A DNA stretch of 64,000 nucleotides from positions 136,159 to 200,158 of the IMG/VR virus record IMGVR_UViG_3300042888_002988. One strand, written 5' to 3'. Below the pieces are notes generated by a model. That model searched no databases. It had not been told where the DNA came from and saw only the letters and a list, made by a program, of their open reading frames with translations. How positions within the stretch are numbered: the stretch's first letter is position 1; each line of letters starts with the position of its first letter. Source of the DNA: a virus. Taxonomy: Duplodnaviria > Caudoviricetes. Of this stretch, positions 2,142 through 51,811 are shown one piece after another. A program made the translations under genes and the position numbers.

Positions 2142-2731
2142 TCGTTACCGAGTTGAACCTAGTGTTCCTACACCCCAGTAAGACGGGAGGAACTTCCGTA
2201 GAGAAGGCCCTGCTCTCGGCCCTCCTGCGCGGCCCGCTCAGCGATCTGGAGCGCAAGCATTACGCCATATGGGACAAAGGCAGCTCGCAGCACTGGCCTT
2301 TGGCGCACCTGCTGCGCCGTCGCCCGGAGGTTGCTAACTACAGGCAGGTGATGACGGTTCGCCATCCATACCACAGGTTCGTCAGTGAGTTCAATTATCA
2401 AGTGGCTGGTAATCGCTACAAGGTATCCCCATTTGAGCAATTCTACCGAAGCAATGATGTCAACGGGGCCATCCTCAGCGGCGCCCTGTGGCAGTGCAAG
2501 TATCCATGGCACGGCGCCAAGCAATGCGATTATCTGGGGGCAACGACCGAGATCATGCGGCTCGAGACATTGTCCCAAGACTGGGCTCGATGCTTTCCGG
2601 AATTCGAAGCGCTGCCGCACGAAATGAAGTCTCGGTCGGTCGTCACTGTCGCCGACTTGGACGACGAAGCGAAGGCGGAGCTAGTGAGGCGCTACGAGGA
2701 GGACTTTAGAGTGTTTAATTATGAGCCATGA
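2138..2731 (+). CDS. Sulfotransferase (Sulfotransfer_2-like)
   Basis: 5'-PSB motif FLHPSKTGGTS and 3'-PB motif VRHPYHRFVSEF; ATGA coupling with the upstream gene. Confidence 0.85.
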   Translation: MIVTELNLVFLHPSKTGGTSVEKALLSALLRGPLSDLERKHYAIWDKGSSQHWPLAHLLRRRPEVANYRQVMTVRHPYHRFVSEFNYQVAGNRYKVSPFEQFYRSNDVNGAILSGALWQCKYPWHGAKQCDYLGATTEIMRLETLSQDWARCFPEFEALPHEMKSRSVVTVADLDDEAKAELVRRYEEDFRVFNYEP

Positions 2732-3980
2732 TCTAACTCTGCAGGCCACGCCGTGGCATATAATCAACCCGACGCACATACCAGTAGCGGCGACGGCCAA
2801 CCTTGGAGACGCCATACAGAGCGCAGCTGCGCGGAAACTGTGGCCGACCACGAAGCTCGTACATCGCGATAAGCCGCGCTCGTGGCCCAAAGATGCGATA
2901 GTACCACTTGTTGGGTGGTATGGACATCATCGACAACCATTTCCAGCGTCGGCGAACGTCGTCATAGTAGGCTTTCACTGCAACCCAAAGTCGGCGCGCT
3001 GCCTGAAAAATCGCGCGGAATGGTTTAAGTCGCAGGTGCGCAATCAGGGCTTCCCAGCGTTCTGTCGTGATATTTACACGCGGGACCTGCTGCGATCGGT
3101 CGGTGTTGATGCGGAGTTCGGTGGCTGCGTCACGCTTACGCTACCTCCCCATACGGGCCCACGATCGGGGAGTATTGTCATCGATGTAGCCGGAGCCGAT
3201 CCGCGAGAGTTGAGCACGCACGAAATCGTAGCGCTTAGCAATATCCGGGCAGAGCAGCGCCTGATAGAAGCGAACAAACAGATAGCGCAGCTGGGGAGCG
3301 CGTTGACTGTGCGGACCTCCCGCCTCCACGCGTGGTTGCCTAGCCTGGCCGCGGGAACAAACGCATCGTTGATATTTCCGCCGGCCGCCGGTGACGTCAG
3401 GTTCACCGGCTACAACATCAACGCCAAGACCCGGCAGGAGCTGTTTTCTCAGACGTCGCGCGCAGAGCCGCATCGTTACCGCCTCATCGAGGGGTGGTTT
3501 GACTTCGCAGATGTATACCGGGATATCGCCGATCGATTGCCGACGGGCGGCACGTTTGTGGAGCTGGGAGTTTACGCCGGAAAGTCGCTTAGCTTCATGG
3601 TTGATTATCTGGCGTATCTAGGCAAGGAAGCGCGTGTGCTGGGTGTCGACCTTTTTGATCGGGTAGCCAAGCCCAAAGTAGAAAGCGCGCTGGGGGACGG
3701 CGCAGAGCTGCTGCAAGCTGATTCGGCGGCGGCAGCTGCAGCATTTGCCGATGGTTCTGTGGACGCCGTGTTCGTGGACGCAAATCACTCGGCGGACGCC
3801 GTGGCAGCGGACATCCGGGCGTGGCTGCCTAAACTGTCCGCGACGGGCGTCATTGCCGGCCATGACCTAAGTCCAGGTCACCCGGGTGTGCGGCGTGGGC
3901 TGTTGCGCGCTGGTATCCCGTATGAGCCAGTTTCCGCCGCCTGCTGGATACATGATCGCCGTCAATCTGAAGTTGACTAG
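2721..3980 (+). CDS. Fusion of polysaccharide pyruvyltransferase-like domain and class I SAM methyltransferase (Methyltransf_24-like)
   Basis: N-terminal NLGDAIQS, GCVTLTL and TSRLHAWLP; C-terminal FVELGVYAGKS, VFVDANH and VIAGHD. Confidence 0.8.
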   Translation: MSHDLTLQATPWHIINPTHIPVAATANLGDAIQSAAARKLWPTTKLVHRDKPRSWPKDAIVPLVGWYGHHRQPFPASANVVIVGFHCNPKSARCLKNRAEWFKSQVRNQGFPAFCRDIYTRDLLRSVGVDAEFGGCVTLTLPPHTGPRSGSIVIDVAGADPRELSTHEIVALSNIRAEQRLIEANKQIAQLGSALTVRTSRLHAWLPSLAAGTNASLIFPPAAGDVRFTGYNINAKTRQELFSQTSRAEPHRYRLIEGWFDFADVYRDIADRLPTGGTFVELGVYAGKSLSFMVDYLAYLGKEARVLGVDLFDRVAKPKVESALGDGAELLQADSAAAAAAFADGSVDAVFVDANHSADAVAADIRAWLPKLSATGVIAGHDLSPGHPGVRRGLLRAGIPYEPVSAACWIHDRRQSEVD

Positions 3981-5978: not shown

Positions 5979-6376
5979 AAGCTATAAAAGTCATATTCGG
6001 GGGGGCCAACAAGGTGGCTATCGACTGGAACGGTTCAGTTGACGGATTGACTGCGGTCGCGCAACGCGCCGGCATCTCGCTGATGACGCAGGAAGGCTCG
6101 GACAAGTTCCTGCCAGCGCGCGGCACCAACGTGTCGCGGGTGCTGTTCAGCTACGGCGCGTTCGATGTCATGGGAATGCAGCACGTGCTCAATTTCGGGG
6201 CGTTGAAAGCTCGCAGCGACATGCAAGCCTTCGACGAACCTTCCCGCGCGCCGGAGGACAGGGTCATCGCGATCCGCACGACGCTGATCACCGTGAAGAA
6301 CAACGCCGCCCAGGTGGGCGTCACCGTATCCAACCAAGCCGGGCAGACGACCCGGGCCATCACTGAAATCGAATGA
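5975..6376 (+). CDS. Baseplate wedge protein, gp25/GPW-like
   Basis: 133 aa with LMTQEGSDKFLPARGT pattern; directly upstream of the baseplate J-like gene. Confidence 0.6.
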   Translation: MKAIKVIFGGANKVAIDWNGSVDGLTAVAQRAGISLMTQEGSDKFLPARGTNVSRVLFSYGAFDVMGMQHVLNFGALKARSDMQAFDEPSRAPEDRVIAIRTTLITVKNNAAQVGVTVSNQAGQTTRAITEIE

Positions 6377-8124
6377 ACCTGAGCTTCACCCAAGAATACT
6401 ACCCGTCCGTCGAGGAACTCACACCAGAGCAGATCACCGCTGCTCGCGAGCAGATTGTCACCGCCCTGCGGCCGTTCATGCCCGACGTGGACTTGACGCC
6501 CGGAACGCCGACGGGTGACTTCGTGGTCACGCCCATGGCGGTCTACCGCGCCGCAGCTGAGGAAGCCAACAATCGCCTGATGAGCGACCTGGACCTGGCG
6601 AACGTCGCGGACGGTCTGATCTACTCGTGCGAGTTCGTCAAAGCCTACCTCGGCAACTTCGCCGTCTACGATGTCGACAACCTGCGCGCCAGCGGGTTGG
6701 TGCGGTTGACTTTCACCAGTCCCCTCGCGAGGGATATCGCCCGCACCATTCGGTTCCAGTTCAACACCGAGGACGACTGGACGCTGATGGTGGCTGATCC
6801 GAATACCACAGTCATCAAGATCCTGCAGGCCGGCAGCGCCCATAACGGCCAGCCGGACACCTACGTCCTCGCGCAGACCACAGCGAACACATGGGCCGTT
6901 GACGTGCCGGTGGAGGGAGTGCTGAGCGCGCCGATCGAGGCAGGCACCGCCGGTGCCGCCACCGAAATTGCCACGGATCTCGTCGGGATCGCCGCAGCGA
7001 TCAAGTTCATGTCCGGCGTGCCGTCCGCGTCGCTCCCCGATCTGGCCAGGATGGCTCGCAAGATTGCATTCTCAATCACGGCCGGCTCGCGCGCCTCCAC
7101 GAAAGCACTGGTGTATCGCAACTGGCCCGAGTCCAACATGGTGTCGCCGGTCGTTCCAGGCGACGACGAGATGCAGCGAATGGCCGCGCTGTCGCCACTG
7201 GGACTGCAGTCGCCGGCCGTGGATCTCTACTTCCGCTCGGCGCGCGACATGCAGCGTGTCACCCAGAACATCCGACTGGATTATGTGAACGCTGCCGGTG
7301 CGCCGGCCGCCAAGGTTTTCCGCGGCGTGCTGCCTCTCCTGCACCGGCCCTCGCGCATCCTGGGCATCGAGTGGTCCGGAACCTCAACTGAGTCCAAGGT
7401 GATCAACTACCGGGTGTTCAGCAAATCCGAGCGCGCCGACCTTTTCGGAAGTTCGCACTGCGGCACCCGGTTCGAGTCACTGTATGCGCAACTGGTGCCG
7501 GTCCTTGACGGCTCCTCCACCCCGCTCATCCCGTTGAGTCAGGATGTCAACGGGCAATACGCCATCTTCACGATCACCTACGACTGCGACCCGCTGCTGG
7601 AGACGGTATCGTCGCTCCTTGAGTCGCCGGAGTATCGACCTGCGGGCGTGGATGTGCTGGTGAAATCGGGCCCGTTGGTTCTGTTCGAGGACCTGGCCAT
7701 TACCTACGTCAAGAAACAGGGCGTGAAGACCACGCTCAACACCGCGCGTGAACGCATCGTCGAGTATCTGCGCACAGCTGGACACCCGGACGACTTCCGG
7801 GTGACGGAGCTTTACGACATCGTCCGCAACGCCGGAGCCGACAAGGTGCTGCAGCTGACTGCCTCCGGTCAGATCCTGGTATCGGCCGCGAACAAGCTGT
7901 TCCGTGCCGCGGTCACGTCACCGCTGGCGACCGCGAATTGGGACACCCCGTCGGACTGGTTGCAGGTCATCCCATTCGTCGCCGTTGAAGAAGTTGCCGC
8001 TCCGGCGATCATCATCAACGGTCCCATGTCTCCCGGCGGCCCGACGGATATCTGGGCGGCCACCAATCGCACGGTGCGCTATGCGACAGACCCCTCAAGC
8101 GTGAGATTCATTGAAACCTCCTGA
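6373..8124 (+). CDS. Baseplate wedge protein, J/gp6-like
   Basis: N-terminal PDVDLTPGTPTGDFVVTP pattern, size and position after the gp25-like gene. Confidence 0.65.
   Translation: MNLSFTQEYYPSVEELTPEQITAAREQIVTALRPFMPDVDLTPGTPTGDFVVTPMAVYRAAAEEANNRLMSDLDLANVADGLIYSCEFVKAYLGNFAVYDVDNLRASGLVRLTFTSPLARDIARTIRFQFNTEDDWTLMVADPNTTVIKILQAGSAHNGQPDTYVLAQTTANTWAVDVPVEGVLSAPIEAGTAGAATEIATDLVGIAAAIKFMSGVPSASLPDLARMARKIAFSITAGSRASTKALVYRNWPESNMVSPVVPGDDEMQRMAALSPLGLQSPAVDLYFRSARDMQRVTQNIRLDYVNAAGAPAAKVFRGVLPLLHRPSRILGIEWSGTSTESKVINYRVFSKSERADLFGSSHCGTRFESLYAQLVPVLDGSSTPLIPLSQDVNGQYAIFTITYDCDPLLETVSSLLESPEYRPAGVDVLVKSGPLVLFEDLAITYVKKQGVKTTLNTARERIVEYLRTAGHPDDFRVTELYDIVRNAGADKVLQLTASGQILVSAANKLFRAAVTSPLATANWDTPSDWLQVIPFVAVEEVAAPAIIINGPMSPGGPTDIWAATNRTVRYATDPSSVRFIETS
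6581..6661 (+). repeat. Copy 1 of an 81-nt dispersed repeat (copy 2 at 49048-49128)
   Basis: 71 of 81 positions identical by hand alignment, in the same reading frame. Confidence 0.95.
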
Positions 8125-19539: not shown

Positions 19540-20172
19540 ATGAGTATCGATGCGAGGGCACGAATTCCACTCAACGAGGGCGCCATCCGTAAGGCGCTCG
19601 GGGACTCGGACACGCCTGGGCTGGTCTTATTCACTATCGCGCTCTACGAGTTCGGACCGTCCGTAATGGGCGATGAGGACGAGGGCGTGGAGGCAATGGA
19701 TCCAGCCGAGATGTGGGCCGAGCTGCACTCCCGCTACAACACCTGGGTCACCGAGGAGGGCGAGAACAAACTCAACGCCATCGTCACCGGACTTACCGGC
19801 GGCAGCTTCTGGTATGACGTGGACATCTTCATGGCCGTCGCGACCGCGTTGTTCGACGGCGATCTGGGCGACATGATCGACACCGGCTTCGAAAACCTCA
19901 GCGCCACCGAGATCATGTGGGCGGTGCTGGAGATGGGGCTTGCTTGGGACTCGGACGAGGAGCCGCAGTTCTCCCTAGACGTGCGCCAGTATGTCAACGA
20001 GGTGCTGTCCTACGAGCAGGAGGATCAGGATCAGAACGCCGTCGAGATTGAGAAGGTGTATCTGCTCATGCTGGATCAGATGCGCGAACTCGGAATCCCG
20101 GGGTCGTTCATCCGGGTGTGGGATGAGGAGTATGCGCAGGTCGTGGCGAACCTGGAAGACGGACGCCTGTGA
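19540..20172 (+). CDS. Acidic hypothetical protein
   Basis: Clean ORF with phage-typical codon usage. Confidence 0.6.
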   Translation: MSIDARARIPLNEGAIRKALGDSDTPGLVLFTIALYEFGPSVMGDEDEGVEAMDPAEMWAELHSRYNTWVTEEGENKLNAIVTGLTGGSFWYDVDIFMAVATALFDGDLGDMIDTGFENLSATEIMWAVLEMGLAWDSDEEPQFSLDVRQYVNEVLSYEQEDQDQNAVEIEKVYLLMLDQMRELGIPGSFIRVWDEEYAQVVANLEDGRL

Positions 20173-20178
20173 TGGGCG

Positions 20179-20216
20179 TGCAATTCTCAACGCTTCCGCG
20201 TCATAATGATTTGCTA
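20179..20216 (+). promoter_or_regulatory. Putative promoter, site 1 (GCAA-N16-GTCATAATGATTTGC)
   Basis: 17 bp are identical to 22294-22310, with GCAA exactly 20 nt upstream of GTCA. Confidence 0.7.
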
Positions 20217-20223
20217 AGGCCGT

Positions 20224-20239
20224 TCGTAATGCATTACGA
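20224..20239. promoter_or_regulatory. Perfect 16-bp palindrome TCGTAATGCATTACGA, candidate operator
   Basis: Lies immediately downstream of promoter site 1. Confidence 0.5.
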
Positions 20240-20258
20240 GCTCACTCTACTTAGCACC

Positions 20259-20324
20259 GCGGCCAACTGCCAATGACGAATAATCACACCCCCGTGTTCT
20301 AATTTGTCTACGGCAGTTGGTCGC
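20259..20324 (+). ncRNA. Structured leader hairpin
   Basis: GCGGCCAACTGCC/GGCAGTTGGTCGC outer stem enclosing GACGAAT/ATTTGTC. Confidence 0.45.
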
Positions 20325-20356
20325 AACATCTATCGACTGTTTACAAAATTTTTACC

Positions 20357-20896
20357 ATGCCCGACTGCACGTCACTTCACATTCACATCCTTCCCGAGGA
20401 CGCCGCCTACTTCGAAGGTCTCACCAGCACTTCGGCGACCAGCACCAGGTTCCCTGGGCTGCTGGACATCGAATGCGAAGAGCTGGTGCCGGCGGATCTC
20501 AACGACTACTGCAAGCGGCCGTTCTTCGGTATGCACGGCAACTACTCCGGCAGCTACCACGCGCAGTCGCTCTGCTGTCCAGGCAAGGGATCGGTGTTCA
20601 CGCACGCCTGCGACGACAACGGCGCGCTCAGCATGTATGCCACGGACCCGTGGTCCATCAGCAATGCGCCGCTGCAGATCGCGTCGTTCACGATGCAGTA
20701 TCTGACGGTGGCCAGGCAGCTCGTCGCCGATATGCTGGACAAAGCTGCGAAGGCCATGGAAGTCAAGCTCAAGGAGCTCGAGTCCGCGACCGACACTCCG
20801 GAGTCTATCGCCGGCCGAGCCGCGAAGCTGTCCGGCGGCAAGACCGCCAAGAAGGCGCCAGCGAAAAAGGCTGGACGCAAACCCAAGAAGGGTTAA
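20357..20896 (+). CDS. Hypothetical protein with Lys/Ala-rich basic C-terminal tail
   Basis: Ends in KTAKKAPAKKAGRKPKKG. Confidence 0.65.
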   Translation: MPDCTSLHIHILPEDAAYFEGLTSTSATSTRFPGLLDIECEELVPADLNDYCKRPFFGMHGNYSGSYHAQSLCCPGKGSVFTHACDDNGALSMYATDPWSISNAPLQIASFTMQYLTVARQLVADMLDKAAKAMEVKLKELESATDTPESIAGRAAKLSGGKTAKKAPAKKAGRKPKKG

Positions 20897-20909
20897 GGTC
20901 AAATTTTCA

Positions 20910-21341
20910 GGGGGCGTTCTGGTTTCGACATGATTGTTGAAGGCATTACCCGCACGTGGTGGTTGATCGGCAGGCCACCTTAAAAGCCGTTCAAAACAAA
21001 CAAATGCCAACTCCAACGAGTTCGCGATGACCTCCGCCGAAGCAGACGCTTTGCTCGCCAATGGTATCGCCGCCCCAACGGGCGTCGAAGCCGGCGCGCT
21101 CGCAGCTGCCTAAGCAGACTGTCATCCCACGTGGGTTCCGCCGGTATACCGGGGCCTGCGCAGGACAACCAATGTATTCCTTAGAGCCAGGTAACACTGG
21201 CGGGCAGCCCGGGAAGACGGGATAGGTCTCAAGCCCCGAATGGTGCGATAGGGTGTCTCGGCCCGATAACTGAGACTAAACGTGTAGAAAGTATGCTTGA
21301 CGTAATTGTGGACAGGGGTTCGACTCCCCTCGCCTCCACCA
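20910..21341 (+). ncRNA. ssrA: tmRNA with a 35-codon tag reading frame (21006-21113)
   Basis: 5' GGGGGCGTTCTGGTTTCGAC; 3' T-arm GGGGTTCGACTCCCC plus CGCCTCC-A-CCA; G3-U70 pair; tag ANSNEFA...ALAAA with stop in a hairpin loop. Confidence 0.95.
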
Positions 21342-21349
21342 TTTCCCAC

Positions 21350-21428
21350 GGCAGGGTAGCTCAGTCTGGTCCAGAGCAACGGGCTCATAATCCGTAGGTC
21401 GGTGGTTCGAATCCACCCCCTGCCACCA
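21350..21428 (+). tRNA. tRNA with CAT anticodon (elongator Met or Ile2; not initiator)
   Basis: Full cloverleaf: GGCAGGG/CCCTGCC acceptor stem, loop CTCATAA, encoded CCA, G1-C72 pair. Confidence 0.92.
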
Positions 21429-21430
21429 AT

Positions 21431-21503
21431 GCCCGCTCAGTATCCCCTGCGCCAGTTTACCCCACGGGGTCTAGCAACGCAGGGGGCAACTGAGCGGGCG
21501 CCA
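21431..21503 (+). ncRNA. 73-nt rod-like hairpin ending in G-CCA
   Basis: GCCCGCTCAGT/ACTGAGCGGGC and CCCCTGCG/CGCAGGGG stems; 3' overhang GCCA. Confidence 0.5.
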
Positions 21504-21541
21504 TTTTCCGGACCCCCTTACCACGGGTCCCCTCCACAAAC

Positions 21542-21602
21542 GTCACAGCTCCGCCTGGCATGAAGCCGCGGACTGAGACCCGCTTGGGAGCGGGGCTGTG
21601 AC
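21542..21602 (+). ncRNA. Three-way-junction hairpin
   Basis: 13-bp closing stem GTCACAGCTCCGC/GCGGGGCTGTGAC enclosing two small hairpins. Confidence 0.45.
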
Positions 21603-21622
21603 ACAAACATCTTCCCGTATGG

Positions 21623-21714
21623 GAGCCAGGGCTGGTTGCCTATCCGATTATCCGCCGCCGTGGGACGCCACGACGGACATCGGTGGGGTAGGGTTCGAGT
21701 CCCTCCCTTGGTTC
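21623..21714 (+). ncRNA. tRNA-like element with acceptor stem and T-arm, and one long hairpin replacing the D and anticodon arms
   Basis: GAGCCAGGG/CCTTGGTTC stem and AGGG-TTCGAGT-CCCT T-arm; no encoded CCA. Confidence 0.55.
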
Positions 21715-21720
21715 ACGATT

Positions 21721-21800
21721 TCGCAGGTAGCTCAGACTGGTAGAGCATCGGTGCCAACACTTACCGAGGGTCGTAGGTTCAAATCCTACCCTGTGATCCA
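21721..21800 (+). tRNA. Non-canonical tRNA with a 10-nt anticodon loop (GCCAACACTT); no decodable anticodon
   Basis: TCGCAGG/CCTGTGA acceptor, TAGCTCAGACTGGTAGAGC D-arm, GTAGG-TTCAAAT-CCTAC T-arm and CCA are intact; TCGGT/ACCGA stem; no U33. Confidence 0.75.
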
Positions 21801-21809
21801 ATTTCCCCA

Positions 21810-22260
21810 CGTCCCGGACAAACCCTTCCCATTGCCGAACCCTGGATGGCCTTCTACGGAGGGCGAGAGGGTGTAGGTCGGCGCTCAGGCGTCGAGAGGG
21901 GACCGGGAGGTTACGGGACGGTCGTCGCCCGCGCTCGCAGTGCACTGCGAGCACACGCTGAACGTAAGCGTCCCACAGCGCGGCGGCGACCGACACTTTC
22001 TCGAAAAGCCCGTAGGCTCTGAGGGCAACCGCAAACCAGTGCCTTGGAATGCAACCGCCCGACAGGTGGCCCAAGAGAAAAGCCGGCGGGGTAGCGCTAC
22101 CCCGCCGGCACCCACCGCTCGGATCGCGACATTTATCAACATGGTGTCGCGATCCGAGCGGTGGTTCGGTGTTCATAGCTCCGGAGTATTTCCGGAAAGA
22201 TCGATCGCTCGATCTGCGGCGGAAGACGGCGGGGGCCGAGGTCCCCGCCGTCTTCCGTCT
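21810..22260 (+). ncRNA. Unassigned highly structured non-coding region with multiple long stems
   Basis: Stems 21810-16/21914-20; cUACGg hairpin 21849-64; 20-bp palindrome 21933-52; 28-bp palindrome 22082-109; 20-bp inverted repeat 22112-31/22145-64; 16-bp stem 22219-58. Confidence 0.6.
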
Positions 22261-22272
22261 GTTTACCTATCG

Positions 22273-22310
22273 CGCAAGTTCTGACTCTTCGGTGTCATAA
22301 TGATTTGCTA
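22273..22310 (+). promoter_or_regulatory. Putative promoter, site 2; near-leaderless ATG
   Basis: CGCAAG-N17-CATAAT, with ATG 8 nt downstream. Confidence 0.7.
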
Positions 22311-22657
22311 TGAACCAACCGTTTATTACCGCACAAAACATCAGCAGCAGTGGAGCCAGACCGTCAACGATCTGGGCCTCTGCGGCCAAGACGCTCAGAA
22401 GTTTGCAAACTGCCGATCTGCAGCAGCACCACGTTCGCTCGTGGGATGCCTACCCCAGCAACCGCTGGGGCTGGGTAGCCGACAGCGGACGACTGCTTGG
22501 TGTCGGTCACTGCGCCAAGTCGCAGGGCCGGCAGGGAGAACGCATCGCCCGGATCGACCTGCCCTACTACGGTAGCGGCCGGGAATTGAGGGAGGACGTG
22601 CGCAAGTATCTCGCCAAGATCGACAGAAAATTCCGCGTGGTCCGCAAAGCAGCGTGA
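22310..22657 (+). CDS. Hypothetical protein
   Basis: ORF directly after promoter site 2. Confidence 0.6.
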   Translation: MNQPFITAQNISSSGARPSTIWASAAKTLRSLQTADLQQHHVRSWDAYPSNRWGWVADSGRLLGVGHCAKSQGRQGERIARIDLPYYGSGRELREDVRKYLAKIDRKFRVVRKAA

Positions 22658-22714
22658 CGCGCCTTCCCCGCGCTGCAAGTTAATCCCCCGCTCATACATC
22701 AAGATTAGCAGCGC

Positions 22715-22757
22715 ACCGCGCGGCTTCCTTCGGGGAGCCGCGCGGTCCATCTTCTTT
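22715..22757 (+). terminator. Intrinsic terminator-like hairpin
   Basis: 14-bp stem with cUUCGg loop followed by a pyrimidine/T tract. Confidence 0.7.
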
Positions 22758-22774
22758 ACCTAACACATAATACA

Positions 22775-22978
22775 ATGAAAGTATACGAACTAATCAGACT
22801 ACTGGAAGAAGCACCCGCCGGATTGGAAGTTCAAGTTGTCCTACCCAACACGCTGGCTACACACATCAAGAAGGTCGAAAGTGACGAGGAGGCCTTTTAC
22901 ATCATAGGCCTAGATGCCGAAATCGTGAGCGACGCGAATGGCGAGAGTTTAGGAATGCTTTCAGCGCTCCAGTTCTGA
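22775..22978 (+). CDS. Small hypothetical protein
   Basis: A-rich leader and ATG; convergent with the terminase C-half. Confidence 0.55.
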   Translation: MKVYELIRLLEEAPAGLEVQVVLPNTLATHIKKVESDEEAFYIIGLDAEIVSDANGESLGMLSALQF

Positions 22979-24871
22979 TCACCCGCCCACGTAGCCGCCA
23001 TCGAACATGTCGCCCATCCGGGTGCCAAGGTCGTTGGGGATCGCGATGCCAAACATGGTCCGCAGCTCGTCCATGATCTGCTTGTTCGGGATCAGCGGCT
23101 CCTGGTTCACGATGCGCTTCATCATGCAGGCGTAGTTGGTGGCCATCAGGAAGTCATCCGCCCGAGCCCCGTGCTTGATGTAGCGCATGATCGTCCGGCC
23201 CGAGGGCGCCTCGGTGATGTTCCGGCGGACGTTCAAGCAGTCCAGAGCAAACGAGCTGGAGTCATCCCACCGCGGCCAGGTGATCATCCCGTCCTTGATG
23301 TCGGCCAGCACGGCTGAGATCGAGTCCGACCGGTGAAGCGACATGATGTTCGACTCCGGGTGTGGAATGCGATCGAGCATCAGCTTGGTGTCGGTGTATT
23401 GGAAGTGGATCAGCATGTTTGTGGGGATCGCGCCGCAGTCCCGCATGAAGGCATTGTAGTAAGCGCCTCCGCCGTTGTCGGTGCCCATGGCGAACGACTT
23501 GAACCGGTTGTGGGCGGCCACGATGGTCTGAGCGACATCGCGGTAATTCATCCCAGCGTAGCGGTGAGCGTAGAGCAGGTCCATCCGACCCTCAGGAGTC
23601 ATCCCGTAGATCACGTGCACCGTGTAGGAGAGCTTCGACCGGTAGGCCGGCTCCCAGTCAGAACCTCCCCAGTCGACGCCGGAGAACACCCTGGTGTAGC
23701 GCACGGTCTCCTCGAAGTAATCCGACTGGGTCTTCTTGAAGGTCTTGTCGGTGCAGCACTTCTTCAGATCCGCCTCGCTGAGCTCGGTCATCCCGGACTC
23801 CACCGCGATTCCCCAGATTTCCTGGAGGAACTTTTTGAACTGACCATTCTGGGTATACCGTTGGTAATACTGCCAGATGTCCATGAAGCGCTTGCCCTGC
23901 GCATACTCCGGCACGATCACCTGCGGAAGGTGGAAGCTCGGCATGTTGACGTTGAGCCTTGATCGATCCTCGTGGACGAACTCGCCGGCCATCGGGTTGA
24001 GCTTGATATGCTTGTTGTCCGGGCAGCGCAGGCCTTCCGGTGAGACCATCATGTTCGGAATGATTTCCGGATCCCCCAGGGAGTGGAACTTCTTCGGGCA
24101 GGAACAGGGGATGTGCCATACGCCACGGCTGCCTAGCCGATACTGTGCTTCGAGGCAGGTATCGAGGTCCTTGGAGGTGCCGGCGAAGATGGTGAGCCGG
24201 TCGTCGGGGAAGGCTTTCTGGACCTGCTCGATCTCAGGTAAATGCTCGGCATCGAAATCCTGCGCTTCGTCTATCAGGACTGATGGAACCGAGTTGCCCC
24301 GAATTTTACTGGGGTCAGTTAGAATGTGCATTAACTTCAGAGAACCGCCGGACGGTGCCTCTTTGTAATACATGTTATTGCGGTAGCCGCGGCTCGCAAA
24401 GTAGGACGGAGGACATACTGATCCGCGCTGCATGTCGAGCATTTTATCAGCGATCGTCTTGCTCTGCTCCTTGAGCGGAGTCAGGTAAATCGCGCGGTAG
24501 TTCGGGAACACGCAGAACTTGAGAAGCTCCGCTCCGCACAGCCCAGTCGAATTATGACTGGCGATCCCGGACGTGAAATACGTGTGCTCTTTGGAATCCA
24601 CCCGCAGATCGAACAGCTCGCGCAGTTCCCCCAGGGGCTCGCAGCTGGTGACCATCTGCCAATCGTGCTCAGTCAATACCCAGTCACCCACCAGGATCTG
24701 ATCCACCTGCGTGAAGCCACTCGTCCCGTTCACCAAATGCTTGCCGGCGCACTCCAGCGTGAATTCACGCGTCTGGAGTCGCCATACCGGCATGGGAATA
24801 GTGCGATAGGCATGTGTGACTTTTACAAAACCACCCCCAGGAGCGGCGACTTTTATGTCAAGATGCTCCAA
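22979..24871 (-). CDS. terL: Terminase large subunit C-terminal part, preceded by a C-terminal split-intein fragment
   Basis: After HN|S: YLTPL, IRGNSVPSVLIDEAQD (Walker B), FAGTSK, Cys-rich region, GVDWGG and GTDNGGG nuclease acids. TTG start at 24871 has GAGGA 7 nt upstream; the ORF is open to GTG 24955. Confidence 0.88.
   Translation of the reverse strand: MEHLDIKVAAPGGGFVKVTHAYRTIPMPVWRLQTREFTLECAGKHLVNGTSGFTQVDQILVGDWVLTEHDWQMVTSCEPLGELRELFDLRVDSKEHTYFTSGIASHNSTGLCGAELLKFCVFPNYRAIYLTPLKEQSKTIADKMLDMQRGSVCPPSYFASRGYRNNMYYKEAPSGGSLKLMHILTDPSKIRGNSVPSVLIDEAQDFDAEHLPEIEQVQKAFPDDRLTIFAGTSKDLDTCLEAQYRLGSRGVWHIPCSCPKKFHSLGDPEIIPNMMVSPEGLRCPDNKHIKLNPMAGEFVHEDRSRLNVNMPSFHLPQVIVPEYAQGKRFMDIWQYYQRYTQNGQFKKFLQEIWGIAVESGMTELSEADLKKCCTDKTFKKTQSDYFEETVRYTRVFSGVDWGGSDWEPAYRSKLSYTVHVIYGMTPEGRMDLLYAHRYAGMNYRDVAQTIVAAHNRFKSFAMGTDNGGGAYYNAFMRDCGAIPTNMLIHFQYTDTKLMLDRIPHPESNIMSLHRSDSISAVLADIKDGMITWPRWDDSSSFALDCLNVRRNITEAPSGRTIMRYIKHGARADDFLMATNYACMMKRIVNQEPLIPNKQIMDELRTMFGIAIPNDLGTRMGDMFDGGYVGG
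24551..24871 (-). mobile_element. IntC: long C-terminal split-intein fragment (107 aa from TTG)
   Basis: Block B ECAGKH, block F LFDLRV..EHTYF and block G SHN|S; no endonuclease domain. Confidence 0.9.
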
Positions 24872-24954
24872 GGATCGTTCCTCAGCTATTTCGTTTTCCA
24901 GCAGCACGGAGTCCACCGTAAGCCGCGAACGGAGCAGCGTCAAGATGATGACCA

Positions 24955-24987
24955 CGCAAGCAGATGCGGCGTGGTGTCACTTATAAA
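24955..24987 (+). promoter_or_regulatory. Putative promoter, site 4, driving the gene inserted between the terminase halves
   Basis: CGCAAG followed by GGTGTCA at the same 20-nt GCAA-to-GTCA spacing as sites 1-3; the downstream hexamer differs (CTTATAAA). Confidence 0.5.
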
Positions 24988-32979: not shown

Positions 32980-33063
32980 ATGTAAAGGCATCCGCCATAC
33001 TTTGCGTGACAGCCTGTAAGAACGGACTTGTCACCCCCGCAAAGCCGTAGAACGATTATCCCT

Positions 33064-33669
33064 ATGCTACTCACGCGACGCTTCCGACTCATCACCCCAC
33101 TGCTGGCTGCGCGCCACAATCAGGATCGCGCCGATCCGAAGCGGGTGTTCAACAGGCTGTCGAAGCCGCCGCTGAACCAGCCCGAGGGGCGTATCTATCT
33201 GCACGCTGACCTGGGTCGGTGGGAGTGGGCATTCTTGGAGGCACGCGACGCGCTGGAGCTGAGCGACGTCGCGGTCAGCGCCATTCTCGCTGGGCGCTGG
33301 TATTCGGTGAAGAACACCACCACCTACCACCGCAAGTTCAAACGCGGCAGTCAGATGCTTACCGAGAAGTTTGAGTCGTTGAGTTCCGGTCAGGTGTTCG
33401 AGATGCAGTTCACACTATCGCGCCACATACCGCCCAACACGGACGGAAACGGACGGTTCACCCGGGCTCCCGATGAGATGGAATTCGACGCGATGCTGAC
33501 ACACATCGGCGACGCCCTGGGCGTTTCGGAGTGGGGACACGCAAGAGACTTCGGACGGTTTACCATCCAGAGGTTCGGGGAGAGTGACGCAACTATCGAC
33601 CGCGAGCCGCTACTCAATGTGCTGCTACCGCCGGTCGATCAATTTACCAACCTAAGTGAAGCAGATTAA
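33064..33669 (+). CDS. Stand-alone RAMP superfamily (Cas7/Csm3/Csf2-like) protein
   Basis: First strand FRLITPLLA, FESLSSGQVFEMQFTL, and G-loop IGDALGVSEWGHARDFGRFTI. Confidence 0.6.
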   Translation: MLLTRRFRLITPLLAARHNQDRADPKRVFNRLSKPPLNQPEGRIYLHADLGRWEWAFLEARDALELSDVAVSAILAGRWYSVKNTTTYHRKFKRGSQMLTEKFESLSSGQVFEMQFTLSRHIPPNTDGNGRFTRAPDEMEFDAMLTHIGDALGVSEWGHARDFGRFTIQRFGESDATIDREPLLNVLLPPVDQFTNLSEAD

Positions 33670-51000: not shown

Positions 51001-51803
51001 TGCGGGACAATGACGGCAACATTGTGCATGCCAAGTATGACATTCACTGGTCGCTGGTGGAGCGCACCTACGGCAAGTATCGCGAGATGATGAAGGCCAA
51101 GGTCGATCGCAACGCCGCCAAGGTCCTCAACTTCTCCAGTGCCTACGGTGCTTCTAGTAGTTCGCTGGAGCGCAAGATCGAATCCGACACAGGCGTCAAG
51201 CCCGAGGAAGGAACCGGCGAACGCGGACTGGAAGCCATTCGGGAACGCCAGCCCCGGGCGACAGAGTTTCTGGAGGAGATGGCCAAGGTGCCGAAGGAGC
51301 GCGGAATGTATCGCGCCGCTTCCGGTCGCATCCGGCACTGCCTGTCACACTCGGCAGGTAGCGGAGTCGGCTGGCGCCAACGCAACTCGATCGACAGCGC
51401 GCTGGGCCGGGAGATGCGGAACTTTCCCATGCAGGAGTCCGTCGGCGCCACGTCGGCTCGGGCGTGCAAATGGCTGCTCAAGGCCTACCGCAAGCTCAAG
51501 CTGCAGGCGCGCCCGCTGACCTGTCTCTATGACTCTGTGGTGACGATCTGCCCACTGGAGGAACGCTTCTTGGTTGCCCGGCTTCACCAGCTATGCATGT
51601 CGGTCCACAACACCTGGGCCTACAGCGATGACTACGGGGATCGGACGCTGACCTATACGATCGACAACGAGTTCAATTACCGATGGTCCACCCGTCCGAG
51701 CGACGAAGACCAGAAGCAGTTGGATGACCGCACCTGGCACGCGCCGGACAGCAAGTTGACGTTCTTGGAGCAGCACGCAAATCTGTGGCAGTTGGTGTCA
51801 TAA
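48045..51803 (+). CDS. polA: Family A DNA polymerase with N-terminal UDG-like domain and 3'-5' exonuclease (SPO1-like architecture)
   Basis: UDG-like PKIIVCLG; Exo motifs VDCE, HHYAAD and YGAAD; motif A SDYATAEM, motif B RNAAKVLNFSSAYG, motif C LYDSV. Confidence 0.93.
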   Translation: MSDRPQSRRGMTLEERQPDYEDLSKCPKTLTKTRHIDDVLYVAGRAPIEGQAEYGVMFVTSSVEEEEATTAANSVFGMRITQPAEYLKGATGIIKDVALRAGIDLDKCYYTACCKWLLPRTQRAKPAKKIMKWGMPVLEDEIKRVKPKIIVCLGKHVFDMVSPQKISFDDAHGCWFWSEDYQAHLYVMYAPFTLVGKPEFYETFRVDFKEVARRKEILDNGGSITGRPFQHQVIRDMDALEDWLDHIETLVEEDRWPGHKDENGHPLLAVDCEWHGRTHVDGKLRTIQFAWSETDAVVIEFRDEKTEWSFEMGSCEDLPPLDPENPLAVKLNGMLSDLDLANVADGLIDSRDFVEAYLGNFDPELETKSRSDIDNGKLKLGKEFTVHMITMGSDTCAVCGEEECDHLRVNRNGDAIAPDAFRQMPRGPSEYQPPPADRIAQRMAELELEHRARYKAIGKRLNHTTEKIKARYIGHHYAADAPWMSHTLGMEIYQRCELDTEFAQQTVDESSELGLERGIAMKYTNLGRYDYDLMMWKRENKELCKGGYGFIPSKIIHPYGAADVITPYRAYPMIKRQLEAQRLWAYYRDIFNPFVTDVFTEFTMTGLPMDVDTMNDLRDLFTFTKDRLNKKLKLRIAKEATQKLKRKLMQTFGVMAAKVCSVTIDARNAEMLRNTVKQLLLDTGKLVDVPKWNKIIAHWEEAPAFNIRSPDQMARWLFDFEELIPIKSTNQKAKGLPSMAWEKVLELPADRQAMFKPAVDKQTLAILSEQLPAIDELLNLNAVGNLSKAFLKEPDVYVDEDTGEEVTEEHGLHAWLASDGRVHGQMSATETGRPRSWAPNTLNWPSYVNKRVAISVATCVQEAFEEGDLPENLLKWVGATPDDLPSIRSCVKVPEGWIAVESDYATAEMVALAIISGDKDLMRILFDPDPEWAVLKHKKHGASVVRVAFTDPKLSGVPESARSNKFLMHVWAAGECLGPVDDSDLLRDNDGNIVHAKYDIHWSLVERTYGKYREMMKAKVDRNAAKVLNFSSAYGASSSSLERKIESDTGVKPEEGTGERGLEAIRERQPRATEFLEEMAKVPKERGMYRAASGRIRHCLSHSAGSGVGWRQRNSIDSALGREMRNFPMQESVGATSARACKWLLKAYRKLKLQARPLTCLYDSVVTICPLEERFLVARLHQLCMSVHNTWAYSDDYGDRTLTYTIDNEFNYRWSTRPSDEDQKQLDDRTWHAPDSKLTFLEQHANLWQLVS
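49048..49128 (+). repeat. Copy 2 of the 81-nt dispersed repeat, inside an insertion in the polymerase exonuclease domain
   Basis: 71 of 81 positions identical to 6581-6661. Confidence 0.95.
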
Positions 51804-51811
51804 TGAATTGC
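51776..51811 (+). promoter_or_regulatory. Putative promoter, site 3
   Basis: CGCAAA-N17-CATAATGAATTGC; shares GGTGTCATAATGA with site 2; ATG 9 nt downstream. Confidence 0.7.

Follow-up and report, generated by a model that had tools for sequence, protein, structure and literature searches.

We investigated a non-coding region at positions 21431–22260 of a 64-kb stretch of phage DNA (the window), which forms the end of an IMG/VR virus record that is 200,158 bp long and estimated to be complete, and found that the region is a mosaic. Hairpins and a tRNA-like element occupy 21431–21720, a tRNA gene occupies 21721–21800, and the remainder, 21801–22268, appears from its folding and its conservation across relatives to be one conserved structured RNA of ~470 nt, encoded on the + strand, which we denote Y. 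Judged by comparison with Rfam, Y represents a new family, of the kind of large structured phage RNAs located beside tRNAs. We propose, with a probability of roughly 45%, that Y is a stable antisense regulator of leaderless translation initiation, which would be released from a transfer-messenger RNA (tmRNA)/tRNA precursor encoded in an accessory phage operon.

On the + strand, the minimum free energy (MFE) of 21798–22268 was -269.5 kcal/mol, compared to -194.9 ± 6.0 kcal/mol for dinucleotide-preserving shuffles (z = -12.4), and the - strand of the same segment reached z = -8.2; the upstream segment, 21429–21720, yielded z = -4.9 on the + strand and z = -3.9 on the - strand. To compare these folds across phages, relatives were gathered via the large terminase, the open reading frame (ORF) preceding the tmRNA gene (ORF179) and a conserved 210-aa protein (147 clusters at E < 1e-20), and synteny was conserved among the relatives collected. 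The helices of Y correspond one-to-one, at nearly the same positions, to those of 6208–6705 in relative L019, although the two sequences are only 57% identical. RNAalifold identified 129 consensus pairs for Y and L019, 31 of which had changed on both sides with pairing kept; the number of such compensatory pairs fell to 0–4 when partners were slid by 1–3 columns and averaged 10.4 (maximum 18) in 60 column shuffles. The consensus energy was -114 kcal/mol, against -26 ± 4 kcal/mol for column shuffles. In the much closer relative L096, substitutions affected 8.6% of the paired and 17.6% of the unpaired positions of Y. Compensatory changes of this type are what a functional structured RNA predicts, and thus they support the reading of both 21801–22268 and the tRNA-like element as non-coding RNA.

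The elements of Y follow in the order domain A, three-way junction B, domain C, hairpins D and E, an unpaired motif, and hairpins H2, H3 and H4. Domain A (21804–21918), a multi-branch structure in the MFE fold that includes a cUACGg hairpin, is partly conserved with L019, with helices at nearly the same positions, and a U-to-C change in L096 converts one of its G.U pairs to G-C. Junction B (21919–21992), formed by an outer stem P1 and the hairpins Ba and Bb, recurs in L019, L026 and L114, where its stem sequences are different, and the Ba loop is palindromic in all four lineages (GUGCAC, GUGCAC, GCGCGC and GGCC). Domain C (21997–22080), where the MFE fold has a UUUCUC/GAGAAA stem closing three small hairpins, is the weakest part, with a rough match in L019 and one hairpin degraded in L096. 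Hairpin D (22082–22109), a 12-bp stem with a GCGC loop that makes up a 28-bp perfect palindrome, occurs at the same place in L019 with the same stem length and loop, and 7 of its 12 pairs differ there on both sides; D fits the terminator pattern only on the - strand. Hairpin E (22112–22164), whose 22-bp stem lies just 5' of the motif, is found in five lineages with covarying stems. The unpaired motif itself, UUCGGUGUUCAUAGC (22165–22179), contains the core GGUGUUCAU (22168–22176), which is invariant in the window, L026, L114, L009 and L006 and replaced by the variant GGUAUUCAU in L019. Beyond it, H2 (22180–22196) and H3 (22198–22215) are present in five lineages: the H2 stem sequence is unique to every lineage, and H3 keeps its sequence in three lineages and its shape alone in two. 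E, H2 and H3 have no U tract. H4, which with its U-rich tail and TTTACC spans 22218–22268 and is shared by the window, L019, L026, L009 and L006, keeps the apex GGC-YGAG-GUC, G.U pair included, in four lineages. H4 probably terminates the unit; the hairpin proper (22218–22259) is followed by UGUUUACC, an imperfect U tract that a consensus terminator scan did not list.

Across the relatives, L026 and L114 retain junction B, E, the motif, H2 and H3, with H4 additionally present in L026, and L009 and L006 retain E, the motif, H2, H3 and H4. The core of the family is therefore E, the GGUGUUCAU motif, H2 and H3, present in five lineages, most of which add the junction upstream or H4. A covariance model (R1) seeded on the window, L019 and L026 and spanning the motif to H4 matched L006 (29 bits), L114 (29 bits) and L009 (25.6 bits), with E values from 1e-4 to 5e-4; it detected nothing in relatives lacking the RNA. 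The module is single-copy in the genome of the window phage. In four IMG/VR relatives identified via the terminase, the shared 3' module was recognized by eye and with model R1, and these four showed no tmRNA, tRNA or DNA-level match to the region. L079 and L082 were left out of the counts, being misaligned by MAFFT and carrying GUUCAU-type motifs in other contexts. In L082, a lower-GC relative, ~730 nt of highly structured non-coding sequence (2285–3015) follow the tmRNA and contain UUCAU four times, twice in hairpin loops (GAUGUUCAUAG and GGUAUUCAUAU); model R1 made no detection there.

Several observations bear on whether the conserved entity is RNA or DNA. The Y/L019 consensus energy is -114 kcal/mol on the + strand and -93 kcal/mol on the - strand, a G.U pair is conserved at the H4 apex, the + strand fold of H4 exceeds the - strand fold in stability by 3–6 kcal/mol in each of four lineages tested, and, read on the + strand, several L096 changes turn G.U into G-C or A-U into G.U. 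Together, these asymmetries favor a + strand RNA over double-stranded DNA, and they are compatible with single-stranded DNA hairpins as well.

The preliminary description of the region, made from the letters alone, had listed strong stems and palindromes, all of which were recovered in place by an inverted-repeat search and MFE folding, including perfect palindromes of 28 bp (22082–22109) and 20 bp (21933–21952), a perfect 20-nt inverted repeat (22112–22131/22145–22164), a terminator-type hairpin (22220–22257) and long hairpins at 21431–21499 and 21542–21602. The cUACGg tetraloop hairpin it mentioned lies at 21849–21864, and the multi-way junctions are predicted in the MFE fold at 21804–21918, 21919–21992 and 21997–22080. 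As it had also observed, tRNA-type elements interleave with the hairpins (tmRNA, 20910–21341; tRNA-Met, 21350–21425; a tRNA with a 10-nt anticodon loop, 21721–21797), the stretch ends at the next promoter, represented by a promoter-like site at 22272–22301, and the region is non-coding, its sole long ORF running antisense through a tRNA and having no counterpart in relatives. Of the two architectures it had offered, one large non-coding RNA or a polycistronic precursor, a single 830-nt RNA is not supported, because 21345–21487 is swapped in a 90%-identical relative and the tRNA and tRNA-like element divide the region; what stands is the conserved structure of the 3' ~470 nt, and a polycistronic precursor is plausible, given the apparent shared unit with the tmRNA and tRNAs. 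Two of the checks that it had suggested gave results in keeping with a new RNA: a cmscan against the 4227 Rfam families returned no family match at gathering score beyond tmRNA and tRNA, and covariation at homologous loci was found in Y with RNAalifold. Blastn of 20900–22300 against GenBank phage records gave a match limited to the tRNA-Met part. The speculative link to a solo RAMP protein received no support, the candidate (33028–33669) being 11 kb away and without a Pfam match; its best NCBIfam hit, to an RNA polymerase sigma factor family, was insignificant (E = 0.076).

The proposal of an antisense function stems from the motif. Its core GGUGUUCAU is the reverse complement of AUGAACACC, and the reverse complement of the motif, beginning GCUAUGAACACC, corresponds to the conserved 5' end of the apparently leaderless genes of the phage. 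These genes follow a promoter-like motif that occurs eight times in the genome (TGCAAT, a 17-nt spacing and the extended -10 TGTCATAAT), at 20179–20207, 22272–22301 and 51775–51804 of the window and at genome positions 7074, 80318, 83571, 84234 and 84582. At six of the eight sites, an ATG lies 8 nt (9 nt at one site) past the -10 hexamer with no Shine-Dalgarno sequence, and, judged by this spacing, the genes behind these six sites are apparently leaderless; most of their 5' ends read GCUAUGA(A/G)C. The gene adjacent to Y, an ORF of 115 aa (22310–22657), belongs to this group: its promoter-like site and 5' end occupy 22272–22324, with TGTCATAAT at 22293–22301, and its ATG is 8 nt past the -10 hexamer, again with no Shine-Dalgarno sequence.

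For each promoter of this class, we calculated the duplex that the motif would form with the 30 nt that follow and ranked it against a background, which for the window was -11.8 ± 3.1 kcal/mol. The predicted duplex with the adjacent gene reached -18.4 kcal/mol, within the top 2.7% of the background, and those with three other promoter-proximal 5' ends in the same genome ranged from -18.9 to -21.8 kcal/mol (top 0.6–2.1%). For the gene next to the RNA in the relatives, the values were -22.0 kcal/mol in L114 (top 0.2%), -18.7 kcal/mol in L009 (top 4.5%) and -23.2 kcal/mol in L006 (top 0.3%), and the second downstream cassette in these three relatives scored at background. Thus, in four lineages, a conserved unpaired motif is complementary to the start region of the next gene, as in the seeds of antisense small RNAs. 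Where motif and target mismatch in L114 and L006, G.U pairing is possible. The core of the motif stays constant as its flanking stems covary, and, when hypothetical read-through RNAs are folded, the MFE structure joins the motif to the start region in each of the four lineages, over a distance of ~300 nt in L006. Measurements have shown start-codon accessibility to be a determinant of leaderless translation (PMC8459731); an abundant stable RNA or a read-through transcript lying over a 5'-terminal AUG should therefore block initiation.

In the mechanism that we envisage, the RNA operon would be read from the promoter-like site at 20179–20207 to the terminator hairpin at 22218–22268, the stretch under study being its non-coding tail. 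The tmRNA, tRNA-Met, tRNA-like element and non-decoding tRNA would supply sites for RNase P and 3'-end processing, and cutting of the precursor at these sites would yield separate stable RNAs, the last of them Y, representing a putative new family of structured RNAs in phages. The exposed motif of Y would pair with the 5'-terminal start-codon region (GCUAUGAAC...) of leaderless mRNAs, that of the adjacent gene first, either in trans or in cis on read-through transcripts, and in both cases initiation by 70S ribosomes would be blocked. The upstream domains would confer stability and perhaps self-association via self-complementary loops.

A number of considerations weigh against this proposal. 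Transcription, processing sites and RNA ends, as well as regulation itself, are deduced from the sequence, and leaderless status is deduced from spacing. Three of the four lineages with complementarity between motif and start (L114, L009 and L006) share a homologous downstream gene, so that these cases are not independent, and, because the targets share the conserved initial transcribed sequence of the promoter, the several good duplexes in the window's genome amount to about one observation. Covariation between motif and target is unclean 5' of the AUG, where L009 and L006 have UGUAUG against the CAUCAA of the motif, and L019 and L026 carry the motif yet lack any gene between the RNA and the terminase. 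Conservation is weak in domains A and C, the comparison draws on about five independent lineages with covariation counts that carry no phylogeny-aware significance, and long perfect palindromes suit a DNA-level role as well.

Alternatively, the hairpins might be passive, serving as terminators, exonuclease barriers or processing hairpins that insulate the tmRNA/tRNA operon from the next cassette and the convergent terminase gene; as RNA, they would then do no more than form and stabilize 3' ends. H4, together with its U-rich tail and TTTACC, is indeed of the type that closes other cassettes, D matches a - strand terminator pattern, the genomic slot is rich in short promoter–terminator cassettes, and terminators typically have GC-rich perfect stems. 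However, terminators have no need of three-way junctions, a conserved unpaired 9–17-nt motif, particular loop sequences or the preserved order of nine elements at 57% identity; D and E lack U tracts on the + strand, and a single terminator hairpin suffices in the same slot of L108, so we consider a purely passive role rather unlikely. An element acting as DNA, whether as an origin or site of lagging-strand priming built from single-strand hairpins, a packaging site beside the terminase gene or a recombination boundary of cassettes, would account for the perfect 20- and 28-bp palindromes, the terminase gene ending 0.7 kb away and the location within a broad minimum of the cumulative GC skew; the motif and the start region, which form an imperfect inverted repeat in four lineages, would then be an inverted repeat around the terminator–promoter segment. 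Contigs from five samples (L030–L033 and L096) end within 22036–22140, which could also be taken as a sign of such a site, but these ends are spread over 100 nt, as expected from poor coverage of hairpins and not from a defined terminus, and the stops are likely due to poor coverage or an assembly artifact at strong hairpins. This segment contains the 28-bp palindrome and the 20-bp inverted repeat, and Logan contigs are gapped there. Further, L100, L103, L107 and L108, whose terminase is 70% identical and whose flanking genes are the same, have no such element, which is hence not essential for replication or packaging; the stems conserve pairing, not sequence, and so are ill-suited as protein recognition sites; G.U pairs favor one strand; and the element resides within a promoter–terminator unit together with the tmRNA and tRNAs. 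A DNA-level function accordingly seems to us decidedly improbable.

Hardly credible is the possibility that the region codes for protein, in a 178-aa ORF on the - strand (21640–22176) or in small + strand ORFs. The 178-aa ORF was called by one gene caller in one public record, starts at an ATG complementary to the CAU of the motif and, in tblastn, shows 27% identity to L019 over 184 aa, but it runs antisense through a tRNA gene, has no Pfam or PHROGs match and has no called gene at the equivalent place in L019 or L026, the L019 frame stopping after 10 codons by eye. The - strand products of L114 and L009 share the first residues MNTN and nothing more, and the lineages differ by compensatory changes in stems and not by synonymous ones. 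We likewise rejected a - strand promoter with the motif as the beginning of a leaderless gene on that strand, there being no conserved -10 hexamer in L019 and L026 by eye. A different kind of alternative, which can coexist with the antisense function, is that Y is an ornate self-assembling RNA like GOLLD and ROOL, in which kissing loops between copies build a multimeric scaffold or cage and the likeness of the motif to a start region is incidental. OLE and GOLLD form homo-oligomers, symmetric kissing loops have been reported for them, and switching between palindromic tetranucleotides in loops is a reported signature of such contacts (PMC12286853); by analogy, Y, whose Ba loop stays palindromic in four lineages while the stem changes, might self-associate. 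D keeps GCGC with 7 of 12 stem pairs altered, and an L096 substitution opens the closing pair of Ba yet leaves GUGCAC intact. On the other hand, the loops of the window and L019 have just 4 nt in the MFE fold, too few to kiss unless the top pairs open, tertiary or quaternary covariation is beyond the reach of five lineages, L009 and L006 keep the 3' module without domains B and D, and Rfam yields no match to GOLLD or ROOL. We judge this explanation unlikely. The union of the two ideas, that Y founds a new class of RNAs that self-assemble via kissing loops and display an antisense motif capturing the 5' ends of leaderless mRNAs, released from a tmRNA/tRNA-mimic operon for the timed shut-off of one class of phage genes, strikes us as quite unlikely.

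Like GOLLD and ROOL, Y is phage-encoded, multi-domain and several hundred nucleotides long, lies beside tRNA genes including tRNA-Met, comes from freshwater, as did the first GOLLD sequences, combines a conserved 3' part with a variable 5' part, and has no associated protein; the switching of apical loops between palindromes is a further likeness to GOLLD (PMC12286853). It differs from them in being shorter (~470 nt versus 580 to >800 nt), in having no predicted pseudoknots so far, in residing in a tmRNA unit, in its conserved unpaired motif antisense to a start codon region, and in being known from a handful of related lake phages. No match to either family was obtained in the window with cmscan of the 4227 Rfam families at gathering score; over 21300–22400, nothing beyond noise, and neither GOLLD nor ROOL, appeared among Rfam matches at E up to 10, nor did either match L019, L026, L114 or L082 at E up to 1, and the ROOL model RF03087 found nothing in the whole phage genome. 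A match to YrlA (RF02553) at 21667–21773 (27.3 bits, E = 0.0019) falls far below the cut-off of 69 bits and spans two separate elements, taking its T arm from the tRNA-like element and its D arm from the tRNA that follows, so that it reflects only T-arm/D-arm likeness; with TROVE/Ro60 (PF05731) also undetected in the 200-kb genome by a search that did detect its controls, membership in YrlA was rejected. Y RNAs in the established sense of that name are known in some phages (PMC4201824), and a catalogue of ~8,500 candidate structured RNAs has been compiled from IMG/VR (PMC10690425).

A further analogy is with small antisense RNAs and type I antitoxin-like neighbors: the 3' module of Y looks like a small RNA composed of seed and terminator. 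In 3'-end-derived trans-acting antisense small RNAs, the short unpaired seed and the terminator hairpin are the most conserved parts; in Y, too, seed and terminator are best kept, and the seed is complementary to the start of a nearby gene. In contrast to these RNAs, the putative target of Y is the extreme 5' end of a leaderless mRNA instead of a Shine-Dalgarno region, Y is much larger and more structured, no chaperone is known, and the downstream 115-aa protein is unlike the small toxin of a type I system. Release from a tRNA precursor also has a precedent: species 1 and species 2 of the phage T4 tRNA region are stable structured RNAs of ~120–140 nt liberated by tRNA-processing enzymes. Compared with Y by description only, they share co-transcription with phage tRNAs and differ in that the T4 region has no tmRNA.

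To our knowledge, none of the large structured phage RNAs known beside tRNA genes, such as GOLLD and ROOL, has an established function. With variable 5' domains and a constant 3' core, Y is smaller and modular and should be easy to dissect, and its conserved 9–17-nt motif, complementary to the start region of the adjacent gene, provides a testable handle. If the antisense proposal is correct, an ornate phage RNA would be tied to the control of leaderless translation; if kissing loops and the antisense motif are both real, it would be the first concrete molecular target for such an RNA. The locus further shows that one accessory cassette, in the hypervariable slot of a freshwater phage family, can carry a structured RNA together with a tmRNA, a tRNA-like element and a non-decoding tRNA.

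This slot lies between the gene for the 210-aa protein and the convergent terminase gene (20172–22979 in the window) and is hypervariable across L006, L009, L019, L026, L079, L082, L100, L103, L104, L106–L108 and L114. In L108 it consists of a bare promoter and terminator (164 nt), in L104 and L106 of protein cassettes, and in L114, L009 and L006 of RNA-only cassettes; L079 has ORF179 and a non-coding tail with no tmRNA, and the window, L096, L019, L026 and L082 carry the tmRNA island. A separate promoter and terminator accompany every cassette. The variability of the slot and the absence of the RNA from some relatives mark Y as accessory, and this speaks against its being indispensable, as DNA, for replication or packaging.

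Within the window, the RNA operon begins with the promoter-like site at 20179–20207 on the + strand (TGCAAT, 17 nt, extended -10 CGTCATAAT), which directly follows the conserved 210-aa gene on its 3' side, as in every relative examined. Between this site and that at 22272–22301, the order is ORF179, tmRNA, tRNA-Met, the structured region, and a GC-rich hairpin with a U-rich tail and TTTACC, with no further site of the promoter class before 22272. This arrangement of hairpin and TTTACC also closes other cassettes of this phage and its relatives; the cassettes terminate in a GC hairpin followed by TCTTCTTTACC. One promoter class and one terminator type thus bracket the unit in the window and in relatives and thereby define it, and the layout suggests that the tmRNA, tRNAs and structured region form one apparent transcription unit. 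Near-identical DNA is known from lake and freshwater metagenomes of many studies; no RNA run is listed as containing the stretch, and the RNA-Seq-labelled runs that contain an 11-kb relative contig are probably DNA.

The 5' part of the region contains hairpins that are lineage-specific. Directly behind tRNA-Met (CAU; 21350–21425, + strand, 71 bits with the Rfam tRNA model) is a long hairpin, X1 (21431–21499), identified by the inverted-repeat search and MFE fold and followed by GCCAUUUU; it may be a partial terminator or a processing hairpin and is lineage-specific, being not conserved in L096. In L096 and one lake run, 21345–21487, comprising tRNA-Met and this first long hairpin, is replaced by another tRNA-Met plus ~290–375 nt of unrelated sequence, although the 210-aa protein of L096 is 97% identical and its sequence from 21488 onward is ~90% identical. 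A wastewater relative has everything before the tRNA at 21721–21800 replaced by ~1 kb of different sequence and retains that tRNA and the downstream RNA. A small hairpin with the loop CCUUACCAC follows at 21510–21530 in the MFE fold, and then a branched hairpin, X3 (21542–21602; inverted repeat and MFE fold), that is nearly identical in L096. By eye, a small hairpin with a 7–9-nt loop C-Y-U/C-A-C-C-A-A/C occurs behind the tmRNA in four lineages (the window, L096, L019 and L026), and in L019, L026 and L082 a hairpin with this loop is nested in a longer one preceded by GAGUYUGC.

The tRNA-like element (21623–21715, + strand), read from the sequence, has a 9-bp acceptor-type helix (21623–21631/21706–21714) and a T arm (21689–21705) with the loop UUCGAGU; a D stem is absent, and the anticodon arm is replaced by a closed 9-bp hairpin whose loop is GACG. 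Five double compensatory changes separate it from its L096 counterpart (counted partly by eye), two in the acceptor helix, one in the stem 21644–21648/21679–21683 and two in the hairpin (21659:21672 and 21661:21670), from which it follows that the element is under selection as a structure. With its closed hairpin and no 7-nt anticodon loop with U33, it is predicted to be unable to decode. The T arms of this element (21686–21698, GUAGGGUUCGAGUCCCU) and of the neighboring tRNA (21779–21791, GUAGGUUCAAAUCCUAC) are near-copies, and the mimic may have arisen by duplication of that tRNA. A scan of IMG/VR with the T arm of the tRNA-like element found nothing.

The neighboring tRNA (21721–21800, + strand; Rfam tRNA, 52 bits), which has an encoded CCA and the 10-nt anticodon loop GCCAACACUU with no U33, fails the test of a canonical decoding tRNA, with the anticodon reported as '???' by ARAGORN, and is probably non-decoding. 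Its sequence is unchanged in L096 (100% identity), the counterpart in L019 likewise has 10 nt in the loop, and the wastewater relative has a 9-nt loop owing to a 1-nt deletion. Such constancy of the body, combined with a loop that can vary, suggests a role in processing or as a handle over one in decoding.

The tmRNA gene (20910–21341, + strand) was identified by Rfam (RF00023, 127 bits) and ARAGORN and is also present in L019, L026 and L082. Its tag (20986–21093), read by eye from a GCC resume codon, has 35 codons and ends in ALAAA, and this length agrees with the long tags that ARAGORN gives for L026, L081 and L082; the tag GPAQDNQCIP assigned to the window by ARAGORN is probably misplaced. 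Two further candidates were rejected: a second tmRNA called by ARAGORN at 21249–21692, which reuses the 3' end of the real one, and a permuted tmRNA, for which Rfam tmRNA_permuted scored 20 bits against a cut-off of 47. ORF179 (20357–20896), whose product has a basic tail rich in Lys and Ala, lies before the tmRNA in every lineage carrying one, and a homolog occurs in L079, which has no tmRNA. Its AlphaFold model (pLDDT confidence score, 54) was too poor for a fold search, a profile search against the PDB gave no match, SmpB included, and a domain search found no SmpB domain in the genome. The large terminase (22979–24955, - strand) is the sole flanking protein with a Pfam or PHROGs family, and NCBIfam gave no significant match for ORF179, the 115-aa protein or the 210-aa protein. 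Attempts to widen the sample were unproductive: 45 IMG/VR loci with the 16-nt motif were dismissed as chance occurrences, none having a second motif nearby, and the terminase relatives P0215 and P0147 contributed no new viral contigs.

Relative L026 carries a second small promoter–terminator unit (6436–6690) with another tRNA-like element, which has an acceptor-type helix, a T arm GCAGG-UUCGAGU-CCUGC and a non-canonical core and is called by neither ARAGORN nor Rfam. On its - strand, at G000:C1:28635–29478, the genome of the window phage also has seven tRNA genes in an ordinary cluster (three for Leu and one each for Tyr, Ser, Asn and Cys); since this cluster is far away, at ~28.6–29.5 kb of the record, the RNA genes described here constitute a separate island.

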